Of a DNA stretch of 64,000 nt, positions 9,368 through 57,848 are shown one piece after another. Location: NCBI RefSeq assembly GCF_016714285.1, contig NZ_JADJNN010000008.1, positions 4,669-68,668 of the forward strand. The letters run 5' to 3'. This stretch comes from Nannocystis sp. (GTDB taxonomy: Bacteria; Myxococcota_A; Polyangia; Nannocystales; Nannocystaceae). The position numbers and the translations under genes are program-made. Below the pieces are notes generated by a model that did no database searches, had not been told where the DNA came from, and saw only the letters and a program-made list of their open reading frames with translations. Every line of letters begins with the position of its first letter. The first letter of the stretch is position 1.

Positions 9368-9901
9368 ATGGCGAGGTCGGTGCATATTCTGTCGTTGCTG
9401 GACGACAGCGACATCGAGTGGTTGGTGCAGGTCGGGCTGCGCCTGAGCGTGCCGCCGGTGGCTCCGCTGGTGGAGGAGGGGCTGCGCACGCCGTTCCTCT
9501 ACATCATTCTTTCGGGGGCCTTTCTCGTGACGCAGAGCGCGACGGGGGCGACGGAGCGGTCGCTGTCGGTGATCCAGCGCGGGGAGCTGGTCGGGGAGCT
9601 GTCGTATCTCGACGCGCGGCCGCCGTCGGCGACGGTGCGGGCGGCCCGGGCCTCGCAGGTGCTGGCGGTGGCGCGCTCGGAGGTCGCGCGCAGGCTGCAG
9701 ACGGACGTCGGGTTCGCGGCCCGCTTCTACCGGGCGCTGGGGATCACGGTGGCGATGCGGCTGCGGGCCCTGACGCGCGGCGAGCCGGAGGACGAGCCGG
9801 ACCTCGAGCAGCTCGGGCTGGTGACGGTGGACGAGCGGCGCTTCGAGGCGATCATGCGCCGGCTGGAGGGGCTCCCAGGCGACGCAGACGCAGCGAGTTG
9901 A
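9368..9901 (+). CDS. cyclic nucleotide-binding domain protein
   Basis: 177-aa ORF starting at ATG 9368. cNMP-binding fold pattern ([12 protein letters not shown]...[23 protein letters not shown]). High GC3. Confidence 0.7.
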
Positions 9902-12323
9902 GCACGACGGTGAGGCTGCTGAGGGCCATCGCCAGGGCGGCGAGGGCGGGGTGGAGCGCGCGCAGGAAGCCCGGGGCGGCGGCGATCGGGTAGAGGGCGC
10001 CGGCGGCCACCGGGATCAGGACGAGGTTGTAGATCGAGGCCCACAGCAGGTTCTGGCGGACCACGGCGAGGGTGCGGCGCGACAGCTCCAGGGCCTCGGG
10101 CAGGCCGCGGAGGTCGCTGCGCATGAGGGTGAGGTCGGCGGCGTGGATCGCGACCTCGGCGCCGCTGCCCATGGCGACGCCGAGGTCGGCCTGGGCCAGG
10201 GCGGGGCCGTCGTTGATGCCGTCGCCGACCATGCCGACCGGGCCGTCCCGCTGGAGCGTGACGATCGCGGCGGCCTTGTCGGCCGGGAGCACGCCGGCGA
10301 TCACGTCGGCGGCGGGGATGCCGGCCTGGGCGGCGATGGCGATGGCGACCTGGCGGTGGTCGCCGGTCAGCATGAGCACGCGCAGGCCGGCGCGGCGCAG
10401 GGTGGCGACGGCCTCGGCGGCCTCGGGGCGCAGGGCGTCGGCCAGGGCGAGCAGGCCGAGCAGGGCGCCGTCGCGGGCCAGCCAGACGAGGGTCTGCGGG
10501 GCCTGCAGGGCGGCGGCGGGGAGGGCGAGGAGGGCGGGTGTCGCTTGGGACAGGTGGGTGGCGGTGGCGGTGGATGTCCCGGCGGACAGGTCGGGTGTCG
10601 CTTGGGACAGGTGGGTGGCGGCTGTCCCGGGGGACAGGTTTGATGTCTCTTGGGACAGGTTGATCGTGGCGCTGGCGGTGGCTGTCCCGGCGGACAGGTC
10701 GGCGGCGAGGGCGGTGAGGGCGGTGGTGTCGACGTGGTTGCTGGTGAGCCAGCGTTCGCTGCCGATGAGGAGGTCGTGGCCGCCGACGCGGGTGCGCAGG
10801 CCGTGGCCGCCGACGGCGCGGAGGTTGTCGCTGGCGGGGAGTTCGAGGCCGGCGTCGCGGGCGGCGGTGACGATCGCGCGGGCGAGCGGGTGCTCGCTGC
10901 GCTGCTCGGCGGCGGCGGCGAGGCGGAGGAGCTCGCGCGGGTCGACGCCGGGGGCGGGCGCGAGGGCGCTGAGCGTGGGGCGGCCGCGGGTGAGGGTGCC
11001 GGTCTTGTCGAGGACGAGGGTGCGCAGGGCCTGGGCTCGCTCGAGCGCGGCCATGTTCTTGAACAGGACGCCGCGGCGGGCGGCGGCGCCGGTGCCGACG
11101 ACGATCGCGGTCGGGGTGGCGAGGCCGAGGGCGCAGGGGCAGGCGATCACGAGGACGGCGACGGCGCGCAGGAGGGCCGCGCCGGCGCCCTGGTCGGCGA
11201 GCAGCCACCACAGCGTGAAGGTGAGGCCGGCGAGGGCGAGGACGACGGGGACGAACACGGCGGCGACGCGGTCGACCAGGCGCTGCACGGGGGCCTTGCT
11301 GGCCTGGGCGGCGCGGACGAGGCGGACGATCTGGGCCAGGGCCGTGGCTGCGCCGACGCGGGTGGCCTCGATCTCGAGGGCGCCGTCGCCGTTGACGGTG
11401 GCGCCGGTGACGGGGTCGCCGGTGGTCTTGCCGACGGGGCGGCTCTCGCCGGTCAGCATGCTCTCGTCGACCTCGGAGGCGCCGCTGCGGACGACGCCGT
11501 CGACCGGGATCGCGGCGCCAGGGGCGACCAACACGGTGTCGCGGACCCGGACCTCTGCGGCGGGGATCTCGAGCTCGTGGCCGTCGCGGCGGACCCGGGC
11601 GGTGGCGGGGCGGAGCGCGAGCAGGGCCCGGATCGCGGCGCCGGCCTGGCCGCGGGCGCGGGTCTCGAGCAGGCGGCCGACGCCCACGAGGGTGATGATC
11701 GCGGCGGAGGTCTCGAAGTGGACGTGGTGGCCGAGAGCGTGGCTGCCGAGGGACTCGGCGACGACCACCGGGACGCTGGCGAGGAAGGCCACGCCGGCGC
11801 CGAGGCTGATCAGGACGTCCATGGTGGCGGCGCGGGCCTTGAGCGCGTGCCAGGCCCCGCGCAGGTGCGGCGCGCCGGTGTAGGCGAGGACCGGCAGGGC
11901 GAGCGCCAGCAGGAGCCACAGGAGCCACGGGGCGGCCGTCCAGGCGCCGAGCAGGTCGAAGTCGCGGCCCATACCGAGGACCATCAGCGGGGCGGTGCAG
12001 GCGATCCCGACGAGGACGCGGCGGCGCTGACTGGCGAGCTCGGCGGCGCGGGCCAGCAGCTCGGCATCGTCGCCGCCCTCGCTGCCCGCGATCACGCTGT
12101 AGCCGGCGGCCTCGACGGCGGCGACCAGCTCACCGCGAGTGACTGTGCCGGGGGTCGCCAGGTGCACGCGGGCGGTCTCACTGGCGAAGTTGACGGCGGC
12201 CGCGGCGACGCCGGGGACGCTGGTGAGCGCGCGTTCGACGGTGTTCGCACAGTTGGCGCAGCGCAGCCCGGCGATCGCCAGCTCGAACTCGGGGTCGTCG
12301 GCGGCGGGCACGGAGCCGAGCAT
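9852..12323 (-). CDS. heavy-metal-translocating P-type ATPase (CopA-like) with N-terminal HMA domain; carries an in-frame low-complexity insertion in the N-domain
   Basis: 823-aa ORF. CxxC metal-binding motif ([12 protein letters not shown]), CPC motif ([11 protein letters not shown]), DKTGTLT phosphorylation motif, [10 protein letters not shown] hinge. A 70-80 aa Ser/Thr/Ala-rich insertion (LSQET/LSAGT repeats) is encoded by the GGACAGGT repeat array at 10540-10720. Confidence 0.9.
10540..10720. repeat. intragenic array of GGGACAGGT / TGTCCCGGCGGACAGG repeat units inside the P-type ATPase gene
   Basis: Direct repeats of gtcgcttgggacaggtgggtggcgg (x2), tgtcccggcggacaggtcgg (x2) and related units read directly in sequence. 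Confidence 0.85.
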
Positions 12324-25972: not shown

Positions 25973-26839
25973 GTGCGCCGCCTCGCCTGTCTCTGGCTCG
26001 CCTCCTCGCTGATCGCGGTGGGCGGGCCGGCGCGCCCGCTGCACGCGGCGCCGGTCAGCGAGCGCGCGGCCGATGTGCCGCTCGCGGTCGAGGGACCTGC
26101 GCCAAAGGACAGGTCGGGAGAGGCTGGCGCGGAGGACAGGTCGGCTGGCTCCGGGGACAGGTCGGGGTCAGCTGGCCCGGAGGACAGGTCGGGAGAGGCT
26201 GGCCCGGAGGACAGGTCGGGGTCGGCTGGCCCGGAGGACAGGTCGGCTGGCTCTGGGGACAGGTCGACGCCGCGGTCGGCGGCCGAGGGGATGCCCGCGG
26301 CGCCGCGGGTGCCGGCGCCGACGGCTGCGATCAAGGATGGGGGTCCAGAGCTGGTCACGGTGGCGGTCGGGCTCGGGCCCTCGGCGCCGGGCTCGAAGGC
26401 GGAGACGGCGGTGGTCGACGCGCTCGAGCGCGCCGCCCGGGCCTCGCAGGCGCCGCCGACGCTGGTTCGCCGCCTGCGGGCCGGGGCGGGCGAGGGGCGG
26501 GCGATCTGCCGCGAGCGTCGCGACGACCTGGTGCTGCTGCTCGAGTACATGCCCGATCGACCCGAGCCGGTGTTGGTGCCCCGGGACTGCCGCCTCGACC
26601 GTGAGCTGGCGCTCCGGGGGAAGGAGGCCGCAGGTGAGCCGGCCCTCATCGGCGTACTGTGGGAGGAACATCGGGCGCTCGTCCGCGGCGGGGCCCGCGA
26701 GCGCAAGGTGAGGATCAGCCGCAAGGTGAAGACGGGCCTCATCGCTGGCGGGGCGATCGTGGTCGTCGGGCTGGCGATCGTGCTGGTTGTGGTCAACAGC
26801 TTGCGCCGCGAGACGGTCGTGCTCACAGTGGGGCCATGA
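25973..26839 (+). CDS. secreted/membrane-anchored protein with (G/A)E(A/D)GPEDRSG tandem repeats
   Basis: GTG 25973. Signal peptide LACLWLASSLIAVG. Seven ~8-9-aa repeats encoded by the GAGGACAGGTCGG tandem array at 26095-26270. C-terminal TM helix. Stop overlaps the next ATG (ATGA). Confidence 0.6.
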   Translation: MRRLACLWLASSLIAVGGPARPLHAAPVSERAADVPLAVEGPAPKDRSGEAGAEDRSAGSGDRSGSAGPEDRSGEAGPEDRSGSAGPEDRSAGSGDRSTPRSAAEGMPAAPRVPAPTAAIKDGGPELVTVAVGLGPSAPGSKAETAVVDALERAARASQAPPTLVRRLRAGAGEGRAICRERRDDLVLLLEYMPDRPEPVLVPRDCRLDRELALRGKEAAGEPALIGVLWEEHRALVRGGARERKVRISRKVKTGLIAGGAIVVVGLAIVLVVVNSLRRETVVLTVGP

Positions 26840-45084: not shown

Positions 45085-46113
45085 CTACACCGGCGGTCTG
45101 CGGTTCAGGAGGTGGCGATCACGGCGAGGCCCAGGACGACAGGTAGGGGACGAAGGGAGCAGGCCGACGCGCACGAGCAGGGTCATGAGGGCGCGCAGGG
45201 TCAGGCTGCCGACCGCGAAGCTGGCGGCGAAGCCGAGGGCGTAGCTGGTCGGGGCGATGCTCGTGGCGCTGCCGTGCTGCCACAGGTCGAGCGACTCCTT
45301 GAGCGAGGCGCCGAGGATCGCGGGGATCGCGAGCAGGAAGGAGAAGCGGGCCGCGGGCAGGCGACCGAGGCCGAGGGCCATCGCCGCGGCCATGGTCGTG
45401 CCGCTGCGCGAGACGCCGGGGAGGATCGCGACCAGCTGGGCGAGGCCGATGACGAGGCCCTGCCACGGGCGCGGGGCCTCGAGGCTGGCGACGCTGTCGT
45501 CGCGCCGGTGCGAGAAGGCGAGCAGGGCGGCGGTGATGAGGAAGCCGCAGCCGATCCAGCGGGTGCTGGTCTCGGCGGCGAGGACGATCGCCATGGTGGT
45601 GTCGCTGAGCGCGAGGGCCAGCGGGAGGGTGCCGACGATCAGGGCGAACAGGAGGGCGCGGGCGGTGTTCAGCGGCGGGCCGACGCGCGCGGGGACCAGG
45701 TCGCGCGAGGGGCCAGGTGGGGGGCCAGGGTTAGCACCTGGCCCATCGGACAGGTCGTCGGCGAGCGCGGGGCCAGTGTGTGGGCCTGGCCGTGAACCTG
45801 CCCCATTGGACAGGTCGTCGGCGAGCGCGAGGGGGTCGCCGACGGGGGCTGTGGGGGTCCCGGTGTGGTGGACGATCGCGACCTGGCGCGGCTGGAACAC
45901 GGCGCGGGCGAGGGCGCCGAGGTCGTGGCGGTAGAACAGCAGGACGGCGACCAGGGTGCCGGCGTGGACGACGATGTTGAAGGTGTGGCCGCCGCTGGCC
46001 GCGTCGACGCCGAGCCAGGTCTGGGCCAGGGCGAGGTGGCCCGAGGAGGAGATCGGGAGGAACTCGGCGACGCCCTGGAGTGCGCCGAGGGCGAGGGCCA
46101 GCAGCGGGCCCAT
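45085..46113 (-). CDS. uppP: undecaprenyl-diphosphatase (UppP/BacA) carrying an ~80-aa in-frame low-complexity insertion
   Basis: ATG 46113 (MGPLLALALGALQGVAEFLPISSSGHL, the BacA N-terminal motif). Later BacA motifs (PGVSRSGTTM, FSFLLAIP). The insertion (QPRQVAIVHHTGTPTAPVGDPLALADDLS...GPPPGPSRDL) is encoded by GGACAGGTCGTCGGCGAGCGCG direct repeats at 45745-45835. Confidence 0.85.
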   Translation of the reverse strand: MGPLLALALGALQGVAEFLPISSSGHLALAQTWLGVDAASGGHTFNIVVHAGTLVAVLLFYRHDLGALARAVFQPRQVAIVHHTGTPTAPVGDPLALADDLSNGAGSRPGPHTGPALADDLSDGPGANPGPPPGPSRDLVPARVGPPLNTARALLFALIVGTLPLALALSDTTMAIVLAAETSTRWIGCGFLITAALLAFSHRRDDSVASLEAPRPWQGLVIGLAQLVAILPGVSRSGTTMAAAMALGLGRLPAARFSFLLAIPAILGASLKESLDLWQHGSATSIAPTSYALGFAASFAVGSLTLRALMTLLVRVGLLPSSPTCRPGPRRDRHLLNRRPPV

Positions 46114-46124
46114 GCCGGGGTCGC

Positions 46125-48041
46125 TCACGCATCCTCCGCGGGGGCCTCGTTGGCGGCGGAGCTGTCCTCCGGGACAGCCGGACGCGTGCTGTCCTCCGGG
46201 ACAGCCGCGGACGCGTGCTCGGCGGAGCTGTCCTCCGGGACAGCCGCGGACGCGTGCTCGGCGGAGCTGTCCTCCGGGACAGCCGCGGACGCGTGCTCGG
46301 CGGAGCTGTCCTCCGGGACAGCCGCGCGCGCGCGCTCGACGACGCCGCGCTCCCACAGCTGCTCGTCGATCGCGCGCATGAGGGCCGCGGTGCTGCGGCG
46401 CTCGTTGGCGCTGATGAAGTAGGTGTGGCGGTCGGCGTCGGCGCGGCGGTGGTTGAGCTCGTCGGGGCCCAGGCGGTCGATCTTGTTGTAGACCCACAGG
46501 CGGGGCACGGCGCCGGCACCGATCTCGCCGAGGATCGCCTCGACGGTGGCGCGCTGCTGGTCCTGGTCGGGGTCGCTGGCGTCGACGACGACGAGCAGGA
46601 GGTCGGCCTCGGCGACCTCCTCGAGGGTGGCGGAGAAGGCCTGGACGAGCGCGGGGGGGAGGTCGCGGATGAAGCCGACGGTGTCGAGGAGGACGACCTC
46701 GTAGTCCTTGGGGAAGCGGATCCTGCGGACGCTGGGGTCGAGGGTGGCGAACAGCTTGTCCTCGGCGACGACGGCGCTGTCGGTGACGGTGTTGAGCAGG
46801 CTGCTCTTGCCGGCGTTGGTGTAGCCGACGATCGCGACCACGGGCACGCCGGTGCGCCGACGCAGGGCCCGACGCTGGTCGCGGCGCTGCTTGAGCGCGA
46901 GCAGGCGGCGCTCGAGGTCGTGGATGCGCTCCTTGGCGCGGCGGCGGTCGATCTCGAGTTTGGTCTCGCCGGGGCCGCGACCACCGATGCCGCCGGCGAG
47001 CCGCGACATGGCGGTGCCGTGGCCGATCATCCGCGGCAGGAGGTAGCGCAGCTGGGCCAGCTCGACCTGCAGCTTGCCGTCGGCCGAGGTGGCGTGCTGG
47101 GCGAAGATGTCGAGGATGAGGGTGGTGCGGTCGATGACCTTGAGGTCGGTGCGCTCGCCGATCTCGCGGGCCTGCGAGGGGGTGAGGTCGGGGTCGCAGA
47201 TCAGGAGCTCGACGTCCTGGGCGAGGGCCCGCACGAGCACGTCGCGCAGCTTGCCCTGGCCGAAGAAGGTGCGCGGGTCGGGGCCGGGGCGGCGCTGGGT
47301 GGCGAGGTCGACTAAGTGGAGGCCGTCGGTGCGGCACAGCTCGCGCAGCTCCTGCTCGCGGGCGTGCAGCTCGGGGCCCTCGCCCTGGTGGATCATGAGG
47401 GCCATGGCGCGGGTGCCCTGCGACTCGGCGCGCGCGCCCGCGGTGGCGGCGACGAGGCCGGCCTCGAGGTCGCGGATGAAGCCGAGGAAGTCGGAGGGCA
47501 TGTCCGCGGCGGGCCGCATGCCGGTGGTGTGGCCGGGGTCGTCGTCGTCGCGGGCGAGCACGCCGAGCGGGACGCGCGGGAAGCCGCGCACGACGAAGAT
47601 GTCCTTTGAGCCAGGTTGTGGCGGGGCCAGGCTGGCGAGGTCGATCTGGACGCCGGCGGGGCCGGTGTGGATCGCGGCGAGGAGGTCGAGGCGCAGCTTG
47701 GCGAGGTCGGCGAGCTCCTCGCGGGTCGGCGGGTCGGGGACCAGGTGGGTGAGGACCAGCCGGACGCCGCGCAGGCGGCCGCCCTGGCCGCGCACGCGGG
47801 TGAACTCCGGGAGGGCGAGGCTGTGGGCGTCGCCGAGGATGACGCGCTGCACGCGGCCGCGGCGGTCGATGAAGAGGCCGAGCTGGCGGTTGAGCTGGTG
47901 CGAGAGCTCGAGCAGGTCGCGCGCGAGCACGGCCGAGATGACGCTCGTCGGCGGGACCTGGCGCGCGCCGAGCCGCTGCAGCGCGCGGGCCTGGCTGCTC
48001 TTGAGGTTCGCCGTGTCGCCGTGGACGATCGGGTCGCTCAC
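46125..48041 (-). CDS. hflX: GTPase HflX with N-terminal extension and C-terminal AAVPEDSSAEHAS tandem-repeat tail
   Basis: GTG 48041 overlaps the stop of the upstream gene (GTGA). HflX N-domain and G-domain motifs (GYTNAGKSSLLN, DTVGF, NKID). Five C-terminal 13-aa repeats encoded by 39-bp tandem repeats at 46160-46326. Confidence 0.9.
   Translation of the reverse strand: MSDPIVHGDTANLKSSQARALQRLGARQVPPTSVISAVLARDLLELSHQLNRQLGLFIDRRGRVQRVILGDAHSLALPEFTRVRGQGGRLRGVRLVLTHLVPDPPTREELADLAKLRLDLLAAIHTGPAGVQIDLASLAPPQPGSKDIFVVRGFPRVPLGVLARDDDDPGHTTGMRPAADMPSDFLGFIRDLEAGLVAATAGARAESQGTRAMALMIHQGEGPELHAREQELRELCRTDGLHLVDLATQRRPGPDPRTFFGQGKLRDVLVRALAQDVELLICDPDLTPSQAREIGERTDLKVIDRTTLILDIFAQHATSADGKLQVELAQLRYLLPRMIGHGTAMSRLAGGIGGRGPGETKLEIDRRRAKERIHDLERRLLALKQRRDQRRALRRRTGVPVVAIVGYTNAGKSSLLNTVTDSAVVAEDKLFATLDPSVRRIRFPKDYEVVLLDTVGFIRDLPPALVQAFSATLEEVAEADLLLVVVDASDPDQDQQRATVEAILGEIGAGAVPRLWVYNKIDRLGPDELNHRRADADRHTYFISANERRSTAALMRAIDEQLWERGVVERARAAVPEDSSAEHASAAVPEDSSAEHASAAVPEDSSAEHASAAVPEDSTRPAVPEDSSAANEAPAEDA
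46160..46326. repeat. five tandem ~39-bp repeats each containing the perfect palindrome GCTGTCC-TCCG-GGACAGC, inside the 3' end of hflX
   Basis: Read directly (gagctgtcctccgggacagccgcggacgcgtgctcggcg x5). Confidence 0.9.
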
Positions 48042-54953: not shown

Positions 54954-55017
54954 CAGCCCGGCGTTCGCGGGCTCGCGGCGGGAGAAAAAAGCGACGCTCG
55001 CCGGTTGATTCGCGCGC

Positions 55018-55289
<272 letters not shown>

Positions 55290-55305
<16 letters not shown>

Positions 55306-55370
55306 GGCTGTCCGAGGGGACAGGTTGCGGCCGGCGTACTTGATGTGAGGCTGTCCGAGCGGACAGGTCA
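55290..55370. repeat. two direct copies of TGATGTGAGGCTGTCCGAG(G/C)GGACAGGT, each with a CTGTCC-N4-GGACAG palindrome, between convergent genes whose stop codons lie in or next to the copies
   Basis: Read directly. Candidate bidirectional terminator or repeat element. Confidence 0.8.
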
Positions 55371-56270
55371 GCGGCGACGACGGAGCAGGAGGGCGAGCGG
55401 GAGCAGGAGGGCGAGCGAGGCGGGCTCGCCGGGGCTGCCGTTGCAGCCGCAGCCGCTGCTGCGCTCGGGGTCGGTGTTGATGCAGTCGCAGTCGCTGCAG
55501 TCGGGCGGGCGCAGGTCGAGGCCCGAGGCCTGCTCGAGCCAGCACAGGCCGCCGATCGGCGCGGCGTAGAAGCCGCCCTTGCCGCAGGTGTAGCCGCGCG
55601 AGGTGACGCCGGCGAGCACGTACTCGCCGCTGGCGAGCTTGGCGAAGGCGGGGCCGCCGGAGTCGCCCTGGCACGAGTCGAGGCCCATGCCGCCGGCCTG
55701 GAACTCGAGGCCGGAGCCGCTGAACTTGGTGATCGGGACGTCGACCTGGCGCTTGATGCCGGTGATGTCGCCCTCGTTGAGGCCGTAGCCGACGACGGTG
55801 ACCTTGTTGTCGACGGCCATGAGCTCGTCCCACTCGTCCTGGTCGGCGATCGGGCGCGGGAACTCGAGGATGTCGGACTGCGGCTTGGTGAGCACGAGGA
55901 AGCCGTAGTCGTGGATGTCCTCCTTGCAGCTCTTCGCGCCGCAGAACTCGGGGTCGAAGCCGATGGCGGCGACCTTGTAGACCGGGACCGGGAAGTTGAC
56001 GTCGTCGCCGCGGCGGACGGTGATGCTGCTGAGCGAGGGCTCGGACTCGAGGCAGTGGGCGGCGGTGAGGACGATGGTCGGGCTGACGAGGGTGCCGGTG
56101 CACAGCGAGCTGCCGAGGGTGATGGCGACGACCGCCGGCCAGGCGCCCGGCTCGACGACCTGGCCGCCGTAGATCGGGACGGGCGGCGGTGGGACGGCGG
56201 TGAGGGTGCCCGTGGGGGTGGCGAGGGCGATCACGGCGGCGAGCCCGGAGAGCAGCATGGCGGCCAGCAT
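55368..56270 (-). CDS. trypsin-like S1 serine protease with MYXO-CTERM sorting signal
   Basis: Catalytic triad context TAAHC, D, GDSGGP. C-terminus GCGCNGSPGEPASLALLLPLALLLRRRR (MYXO-CTERM). Confidence 0.85.
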   Translation of the reverse strand: MLAAMLLSGLAAVIALATPTGTLTAVPPPPVPIYGGQVVEPGAWPAVVAITLGSSLCTGTLVSPTIVLTAAHCLESEPSLSSITVRRGDDVNFPVPVYKVAAIGFDPEFCGAKSCKEDIHDYGFLVLTKPQSDILEFPRPIADQDEWDELMAVDNKVTVVGYGLNEGDITGIKRQVDVPITKFSGSGLEFQAGGMGLDSCQGDSGGPAFAKLASGEYVLAGVTSRGYTCGKGGFYAAPIGGLCWLEQASGLDLRPPDCSDCDCINTDPERSSGCGCNGSPGEPASLALLLPLALLLRRRR

Positions 56271-56315
56271 ACCGTGTTCACCGTGGGGCCGCGGTGAGCG
56301 ATGCTGCGCCCGTGA

Positions 56316-57698: not shown

Positions 57699-57848
57699 GG
57701 CGCGGGGGACAGGTGCGAGGAGACAGGTGCGAAGGGACAGGTTGGAAGGGACAGGTGGGATGGCCGCGGGGACAGGTGCGAAGGGACAGGTGGGGATGGC
57801 CGAAGGGACAGGTGGGAGGGGACCGGTGGGGATGGCCGAAGGGACAGC
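57699..57848. repeat. intergenic tandem array of eight degenerate 14-22-bp units built on GGGACAGGTG (…GGACAGGTGCGAAG / GGACAGGTTGGAAG / GGACAGGTGGGGATGGCCGAAG…)
   Basis: Read directly between the two M16 peptidase genes. All copies are on the + strand. Confidence 0.9.

Follow-up and report, generated by a model that had tools for sequence, protein, structure and literature searches.

The DNA analysed here, hereafter the window, is a stretch of 64,000 nt from a Nannocystis sp. genome (assembly GCF_016714285.1, contig NZ_JADJNN010000008.1, positions 4,669 to 68,668 of the forward strand), and the object of the analysis is its uppP (bacA) gene, the product of which, the undecaprenyl-diphosphatase UppP/BacA, contains a long loop encoded in part by two tandem copies of a palindrome-bearing unit. 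The protein was assigned by a match to the Pfam BacA profile PF02673 (E = 7.8e-54, 183.5 bits against a gathering cut-off of 33.4), which falls in two stretches with the loop between them, by matches to the E. coli BacA/UppP structures 5OON and 6CB2 (E ~ 2e-23) and by 100% identity to an NCBI Nannocystis sp. protein (P0001). The two catalytic motifs of the family, BacA1, defined as E..S..H in EFLPxSSxGH, and BacA2, defined as PGxSRSGxT (PMC5852022), are both intact, and they are invariant throughout our alignment of homologues (alignment A1). The gene has the following features:

45085..46113, minus strand: uppP/bacA coding sequence as assembled, 342 aa (Pfam BacA, E. coli BacA structures, NCBI protein)
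46036-46065, minus strand: BacA1 motif EFLPISSSGH, aa 17-26 (alignment A1)
45664..45876, minus strand: genus-specific extra loop segment, 71 aa, aa 80-150 (alignment A1)
45762..45821, minus strand: tandem unit 1, protein-proximal, encoding ..ALADDLSNGAGSRPGPHTGP.. (repeat search, spacing 60)
45702..45761, minus strand: tandem unit 2, encoding ..ALADDLSDGPGANPGPPPGP.. (repeat search; differs in the close relative L001)
45796..45815: palindrome of unit 1, ACCTGCCC-catt-GGACAGGT, 7/8 arm positions matching
45736..45755: palindrome of unit 2, ACCTGGCC-catc-GGACAGGT, 7/8 arm positions matching
45400-45420, minus strand: BacA2 motif PGVSRSG, aa 232-238 (alignment A1)
45140..45154, minus strand: two 1-nt deletions, at 45154 (C4 to C3) and 45140 (DNA alignment against L001 and L002)

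The extra segment of 71 residues (P 15, G 11, A 8, D 7) is absent from the Enhygromyxa-type UppP of 275 aa that served as the reference for comparison, so that an earlier note on this DNA, made from the letters alone, was about right in describing a Pro/Gly/Asp-rich insert of ~80 aa. In E. coli BacA the N-terminus is periplasmic and h1 and h2 are a re-entrant pair; the chain reaches the cytoplasmic side through H3, and the connector from H3 to H4 links structural domains 1 and 2 (PMC5852022). Alignment to the E. coli structure places the extra segment in this cytoplasmic H3-H4 loop, with residues ~70-153 of the Nannocystis protein facing residues ~83-99 of the structure chain, and an AlphaFold2 model built from a 29-sequence alignment has a predicted local distance difference test score (pLDDT) below 50 at residues 85-142 and high confidence in the helices. 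Given its position in the connector and the low pLDDT, the segment is predicted to form a disordered linker on the cytoplasmic side, well away from the active site, which faces the periplasm (PMC5852022). It thus resembles lineage-specific disordered loop insertions of membrane enzymes, but the Nannocystis loop is 3-10 times longer than that of solved UppP and made of recurrent repeat expansions.

A loop of this kind is a feature of the whole clade: its length is 32-115 aa in all Nannocystis-clade UppP homologues examined and only 11-12 aa in Enhygromyxa, Pseudenhygromyxa and related metagenome-assembled genomes. The proposal in the earlier note of an insertion into an otherwise canonical UppP fails because the orthologue alignment finds the loop in every Nannocystis UppP examined, and a conserved loop in related UppP proteins was the very finding on which the note had said that its reading would fall. 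The loop is hypervariable within the genus and carries separate tandem repeats in different lineages and none in the sister genera: HLPQGPGQ occurs twice in P0004, DLSSRPSDPSARTAAS three times in P0045, APVPADSR three times in P0040, and TDPAGHVPADS twice in N. pusilla and its relatives. PGPHTGPALADDLSDGPGANPGPPPGPSR is a peptide of the UppP loop.

The loop encoded in the window contains two exact copies of the 22-mer GGACAGGTCGTCGGCGAGCGCG, at 45748-45769 and 45808-45829 and 60 nt apart, which bear out the two direct repeat copies first described in uppP. A third copy with 2 mismatches lies at 10692 in the gene for CopA, giving 3 matches at <=3 mismatches in the window against 0.03 expected. 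We considered a longer element shared by uppP and CopA on account of this third match and rejected it, since the extra CGGCGAG is among the commonest heptamers of the strand and encodes similar Ala/Leu/Asp residues. The exact 22-mers belong to a larger duplication, in which units 1 and 2 stand adjacent and head-to-tail, each 60 nt or 20 codons long, with 77% identity to each other, and are read in frame as the peptide ...PLALADDLSNGAGSRPGPHTG-PALADDLSDGPGANPGPPPG..., as in coding tandem repeats, the units of which have lengths divisible by three. The claim that the reading frame is preserved thus holds across the insert (60 nt being 20 codons) but not over the whole gene, where the deletions at 45154 and 45140 intervene.

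The same two-copy layout is present on two independent metagenome contigs from JGI (L002 and L003) of a related species, in an intact open reading frame of 341 aa and with units of a 57-nt period that are 93% identical. The protein of this relative (P0002) is 85% identical to the UppP of the window and contains the peptide core twice. In the closer clade (60-85% identity) the core, in the form PLAL[AR][DE]DLxDGPG, occurs once, and the codon differences are mostly synonymous (L004 and L128 differ in the motif by 5 synonymous and 2 conservative changes). Thus PLALxDDLxDGPG is present in one copy in P0003-P0035 and in two in the window and P0002, and the copy number of the uppP unit differs among related genomes as in a variable-number tandem repeat (VNTR), with the caveat that the changed second copy of the 97% strain L001 may be an assembly error. 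The motif is absent from the UppP of N. exedens, N. pusilla and N. punicea and from that of all sister genera. Because the two-copy layout is shared with a relative of 85% identity, the comparison of these sequences indicates that the uppP duplication is real, local and older than the split of the window and P0002 lineages.

Each unit also holds an imperfect 20-nt palindrome of the form ACCTGTCC-N4-GGACAGGT, written in rare codons. The upstream ACCTG that had been taken to give a partial dyad is present in both copies, at 45736-45755 and 45796-45815, both of which read ACCTG(G/C)CC-N4-GGACAGGT on the plus strand. In the mRNA the palindrome of unit 1 becomes GACCUGUCC-AAUG-GGGCAGGUU, with a closing U.G pair; the minimum-free-energy fold includes this 9-bp hairpin, and the 161-nt loop region as a whole is unusually stable (-79.8 kcal/mol, z = -4.76). 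For the left arm of unit 2 a perfect pairing is also possible with GGCCAGGT, which lies at 45711-45718 (inverted repeat I1, 14 nt, 93%). The uppP units share the frame of the CopA units described below, GAC CTG TCC xxx GGG xCA GGT, which encodes D-L-S-x-G-x-G. Among the minus-strand genes of the window the codons concerned have frequencies of 34% (CTG), 26% (TCC), 5.7% (GGG), 7.6% (CCA) and 3.2% (GGT), so that the series CTG-TCC-...-GGG-CCA-GGT has a joint probability of ~1e-5; it nevertheless persists in both units, in the window as well as in L002. As the dyad codons are so atypical of the minus-strand genes, their cause is likely to lie at the level of DNA or RNA. In L128, L127, L005 and L004, whose version of the motif (GACCTCGCCGACGGCCCCGGC) lacks the dyad, it is in single copy, and dyad-bearing loop units are found in 2 copies (window, L002, P0004) or 3 (P0045). 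The sequences of these few lineages thus appear to link the palindrome to duplication within uppP.

The palindrome is not confined to uppP. The window contains 33 occurrences of GGACAGGT against 1.7 expected, and their alignment revealed a conserved upstream CTG(T/G)CCC and a full element of the form (A)CCTGTCC-N4-GGACAGG(T). Its core, CTGTCC-N4-GGACAG, is the commonest perfect hexamer dyad of the window, with 12 copies over the 64 kb where base composition would predict 0.006, always with a spacer of 4 nt, and with 25 copies when up to one mismatch is allowed. In 21-kb loci centred on uppP, picked solely for containing that gene, four other Nannocystis have 2, 1, 1 and 1 perfect dyads, and the Pseudenhygromyxa and Enhygromyxa loci have 0 and 0, even allowing one mismatch. 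In a scan of the genomes of 185,579 species for the 14-base dyad, Nannocystis accounts for 9 among the 80 matches listed, which are a sample and not a full count. At the scale of the window and the 21-kb loci the family is therefore a dispersed, taxon-specific short imperfect palindrome, like the repetitive extragenic palindromic (REP) sequences; it is over-represented and restricted to the genus. Its members occur in three reading frames, in both gene orientations and in intergenic arrays. Five further loci of the window carry it in repeated form:

46154..46338, minus strand: HflX C-terminal tail, five perfect CTGTCC-tccg-GGACAG dyads in 27/39-nt units, AAVPEDSSAEHAS repeats
10548..10699, minus strand: CopA P-type ATPase array, six [DNH]LSxxT units with spacings of 36/21/27/21/39 nt
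26107..26264, plus strand: array in a secreted/membrane protein (open reading frame 25973..26839), seven GGACAGGT units with spacings of 27/21 nt, GPEDRSG repeats
55300..55370: 43-nt direct repeat with two perfect dyads, between the convergent ends of 55009..55305 (plus) and 55368..56315 (minus)
57707..57813: non-coding array of six GGGACAGGT and one GAGACAGGT with spacings of 14/21/22 nt, between two minus-strand M16 peptidase genes

The HflX gene (46125..48041, minus strand) has in its tail a 39-nt repeat of ~4 copies, 97% identical, with palindromes of the form GCTGTCC-tccg-GGACAGC; the window has 5 of these dyads, whereas L001 has 3 and L002/L003 have 2. In CopA (9852..12323, minus strand) the array lies in the nucleotide-binding region, in the same frame as the DLSxG units of uppP, and adds ~60 residues relative to residues 492-513 of A. 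fulgidus CopA; in 22 Nannocystis homologues this segment is 40-158 aa long and built of D[LM]SxGT units. The protein with the GPEDRSG repeats is small and has a membrane helix at its C-terminus; the repeats come directly after its signal peptide, and their strand and reading frame differ from those of uppP and CopA. The array at 57.7 kb lies in a 150-nt spacer and consists of direct half-sites only, and the repeat at 55300-55370 has a hairpin z of -3.97. Intergenic dyads directly past the stop codons of convergent genes were found in three genomes (at 2330 and 17915 in L004, at 1186 in L005 and at 55308/55351 in the window). All 16 of the 16 spacings within coding arrays are multiples of three, against 1 of the 7 intergenic spacings (14/14/14/21/14/22 and 43). 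The claim that one and the same repeat family lies in frame in uppP stands insofar as the family is over-represented and forms in-frame arrays in other genes, but the uppP copies are a local tandem duplication, and nothing found shows the family to be mobile.

Several other accounts of the family were tried and set aside. A selected 'DLS' peptide as its origin was rejected on account of the intergenic arrays, the three frames, the occurrence on both strands and the rare codons. G-quadruplex arrays were rejected, as the G-tracts fit the array at 57.7 kb only and neither uppP nor the array at 26 kb. The occurrences of GGACAGGT are biased 30:3 by strand (12 plus against 3 minus when independent loci are counted), and this bias is explained by the large GC skew of the window, which at +0.18 predicts by itself a ratio of ~4:1 for a motif made up of five Gs and a single C, in agreement with the count of independent loci; a replication signal akin to FtsK-orienting polar sequences (KOPS) or Chi is hence not needed. 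The asymmetry itself runs through the whole window (1-64000): the GC skew is +0.18 in every 8-kb block, that of third codon positions is ~-0.45 for genes on the minus strand but +0.1 to +0.2 for those on the plus strand, and codon usage is split by gene orientation, with GGC making up 89% of Gly codons in minus-strand genes and 48% in plus-strand genes. Rfam 15 gave two tRNAs only across the window and no match at the repeats at the gathering score, and no T-run or other canonical terminators were found at the repeats. We found nothing relevant in the literature on palindromic, REP or tandem repeats of Nannocystis or of myxobacteria, or on the motif, and the family appears not to have been described previously. 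A perfect CTGTCC-N4-GGACAG was also noted at the same site of a ClpB-like AAA gene in N. exedens (L006, 3696) and N. pusilla (L131, 3744), which suggests that some coding copies are old, stable and not array-forming.

From the above observations we consider it probable that the uppP copies represent an old, local, in-frame duplication of a REP-like, slippage-prone palindrome unit in a tolerant loop. Each of the units, of 57-60 nt, carries an imperfect copy of a 20-nt REP-like palindrome found across Nannocystis. Outside genes the members of this family would stand as hairpins, often right after the stops of convergent genes; within genes they would survive only in insertion-tolerant loops and tails, such as the disordered H3-H4 loop of UppP. 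Within and outside genes alike, copies of the palindrome-containing units are proposed to be added and removed, the most plausible route being slipped-strand mispairing aided by the hairpins, and in coding DNA selection would retain only changes that are multiples of three and lie outside structured regions. In uppP this would lengthen the flexible linker that joins the two structural domains of the enzyme, and catalysis would probably be little affected.

Several points weigh against this account: 1) slippage has been deduced from the repeats and not directly observed. 2) The two uppP copies have diverged to 77% identity, and the locus is thus not changing fast at present. 3) The difference of L001 in the second copy, which is 14 nt shorter and frameshifted so that the gene is split into 127 + 229 aa, could stem from an error of long-read assembly and not reflect real variation. 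4) The DNA hairpins of uppP are weak (unit 1 -4.8 kcal/mol, z = -1.6; unit 2 -5.9 kcal/mol, z = -2.3), and its dyads are imperfect, matching at 7/8 arm positions. 5) The association between dyad and duplication concerns a handful of lineages. 6) Plain slippage leaves unexplained the retention of the rare-codon dyad in both copies of two lineages, which suggests selection or conversion at the level of DNA or RNA. 7) The peptide core PLALxDDLxDGPG is kept across the clade by synonymous changes, which suggests some protein-level constraint, unexpected of a purely neutral linker.

The last of these points could be carried further, to the reading that PLALxDDLxDGPG is a functional peptide of the loop, e.g. 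a docking site, kept by selection on the protein, with the palindrome incidental to it. The 13-residue core is conserved at 60-85% identity with mostly synonymous codon differences, and in the window and L002 both copies retain it. Yet the motif is missing from N. exedens, N. pusilla, N. punicea and all sister genera, the remainder of the loop is hypervariable, the choice of CTG-TCC-GGG-CCA-GGT (~1e-5) is unexplained by selection on the peptide, and the DNA motif is found again in non-coding sequence and in other frames. We regard such a peptide as an improbable explanation of the repeats.

The point about rare codons leads instead to a selected signal in DNA or RNA, in which the palindrome would be a site for a Nannocystis-specific protein or an mRNA hairpin that would make transcripts more stable, terminate transcription between convergent genes or cause ribosomes to pause between membrane-helix segments, and the uppP copies would be retained for this role. 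The conservation of the rare-codon dyad in both copies of two lineages against a strong mutational skew, the intergenic copies immediately past the stops of convergent genes in three genomes, the unusually stable loop mRNA (z = -4.76) and the shared position of the ClpB-like dyad in N. exedens and N. pusilla all speak for a signal. The arrays, however, keep one arm well while the other decays without compensation, as in CopA, where the right arms read GGACAG, AGACAT and CGACAC, and at 57.7 kb the intergenic array is made up of direct half-sites only; this one-arm conservation together with the half-site array is a poor fit to a hairpin requirement. The repeats are also without T-run terminators or an Rfam match, and we know of no protein that binds the palindrome. 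A selected signal of this kind is accordingly given a low probability.

[quoted passage not shown] Such an element would be in keeping with the presence of the same palindrome at many unrelated loci of mainly one genus, with dyad-bearing units at differing positions of the UppP loop in different lineages, and with the rare codons CCA, GGT and GGG, which fit imported sequence. The copies in uppP are, on the contrary, contiguous at 57-60 nt, with their non-palindromic flanks (CTCGCGCTCGCCGACGAC...) duplicated too, and the duplicated flanks are homologous to the single-copy motif of the relatives. The orthologue alignments contain no terminal repeats, target-site duplications, element boundaries or empty sites, and the unit at position A of L005 aligns with a decayed version in L004 and not with an empty site. 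The unit of 16-20 nt is, moreover, far smaller than known MITEs and RPEs (PMC10969869). Taken together, these features of the window and the short loci compared make placement by a mobile element quite unlikely.

The remaining alternative invokes error or decay, and the state of the C-terminus bears on it. The 1-nt deletions at 45154 and 45140 shift the frame of the last ~22 codons and remove helix H10, so that the gene as assembled does not encode the complete ten-helix BacA fold; without them the canonical stop would be at 45105-45107. In the protein alignment the C-terminus reads LLPSSPTCRP... where homologues keep LLPFVPYLIVLGLAVIATS, the conserved PFVPYLIVLGLAVIATS being replaced by SSPTCRPGPRRDRHLLNRRPPV; the Pfam BacA match ends at profile position 244/257, and the pLDDT is below 50 from residue 320 onward. 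This frameshift could reflect either a sequencing error or a genuine lesion. The close relative L001 (GCA_016717175), which is 97.9-99.5% identical to the window in nucleotides over 6.7 kb, has an intact C-terminus but the other frameshift within the loop repeat noted above, and every indel between the two in the 6.7 kb belongs to the HflX array, the second uppP copy or the two C-terminal deletions; either both assemblies err at uppP, or the gene is decaying in this lineage. Hairpin-rich, CCWGG-rich DNA is hard to assemble from long reads. It is nevertheless highly improbable that the duplication is an assembly artefact or that uppP is a decaying pseudogene with meaningless repeats: the frameshifted C-terminus and the different frameshift of L001 would fit, but an artefact is unlikely as the source because two independent JGI contigs of a related species have the same two copies in an intact 341-aa frame, both catalytic motifs are intact, and the window and L001 are free of other indels in 6.7 kb and their assemblies not generally error-ridden. 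As a separate observation on H10, E. coli BacA Arg261, which is described as part of the pyrophosphate-binding pocket on this helix (PMC5852022), aligns with Leu (motif PFVPYL, aa ~326 of intact homologues) in all 28 of the 28 aligned homologues, which span Nannocystis and relatives of the sister genera (alignment A1; P0002 against 5OON).

We return to the probable origin by local duplication of a slippage-prone unit in order to set it beside systems known from other bacteria. The RPEs are a palindromic family found both between genes and in frame in unrelated housekeeping genes as tolerated peptides (PMC10969869), and tolerated in-frame peptides in unrelated genes are likewise observed here, in UppP, CopA, HflX and the secreted protein. 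The RPEs differ in that they are ~100-150 bp long, are grouped in ten sequence families, each of them coding for a conserved peptide, are present as single insertions and reside in an AT-rich obligate intracellular bacterium, while the Nannocystis unit is a 16-20 nt palindrome of a free-living myxobacterium of 74% G+C, is found mostly in tandem arrays with units of 21-60 nt, has more than one reading frame in use and has, in uppP, multiplied by local duplication; we found no sequence relationship between the two. Discrete elements of the RPE or MITE kind measure ~100-500 bp (PMC10969869), and the Nannocystis family has neither this size nor defined ends, as the palindrome measures 16-20 nt and the duplicated unit takes in flanks of the host motif.

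The REPs and bacterial interspersed mosaic elements (BIMEs) of Proteobacteria are similar in being short imperfect palindromes, specific to a species or genus, multicopy, located after stops or between convergent genes and sometimes clustered. REPs, which are linked to RAYTs, are extragenic by definition, whereas the Nannocystis family is frequent in coding sequences as in-frame arrays (the copies in uppP, CopA, HflX and the secreted protein are coding, and other members are extragenic), and its arms of 6-8 nt are shorter than those of typical REPs. With coding VNTRs, which change by slipped-strand mispairing, the family shares its mode of working, head-to-tail units of a length divisible by three, a location in disordered or surface regions, and a variable copy number (1 or 2 in uppP; 2, 3 or 5 in HflX; ~1 to 12+ in CopA); ordinary VNTRs are locus-specific, whereas here unrelated loci and non-coding DNA share a palindromic core. 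The DNA uptake sequences (DUS) of Neisseria and the uptake signal sequences (USS) of Haemophilus are short, over-represented, taxon-specific motifs, often present as inverted repeats after genes, and when in genes found in poorly conserved protein segments. The Nannocystis motif is similarly short, heavily over-represented and taxon-specific, but uptake sequences are not known to form tandem arrays.

The uppP locus taken alone is a modest, old tandem duplication, and the palindrome family is the more interesting result. A bolder proposal, which we advance tentatively and consider doubtful in its full form, is that a genus-wide family of palindromes of 16-20 nt is kept at the level of DNA or RNA against codon bias and mutational skew and seeds hypervariable in-frame peptide arrays (D-L/M-S-x-G-T and related) in CopA, HflX and UppP; the family would then be a much shorter, array-forming, high-G+C counterpart of the RPEs, possibly recognised or spread by a dedicated protein.

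With respect to the enzyme, the H3-H4 connector of the BacA fold tolerates 20-100 additional disordered residues, and the differences in uppP length seen here reflect repeat dynamics and not new domains; this tolerance is of use for annotation and for the modelling or engineering of this drug-target enzyme. There is also a practical warning, in that the repeat regions are where close assemblies disagree and where frameshifts occur. With respect to the genus, several unusual low-complexity stretches of unrelated essential proteins are explained by a single short palindrome. If confirmed genome-wide, the arrays of CopA, HflX and UppP would be ready markers for strain typing, and the family would offer a tractable case of non-coding repeat dynamics writing peptide into the proteins of a free-living bacterium.

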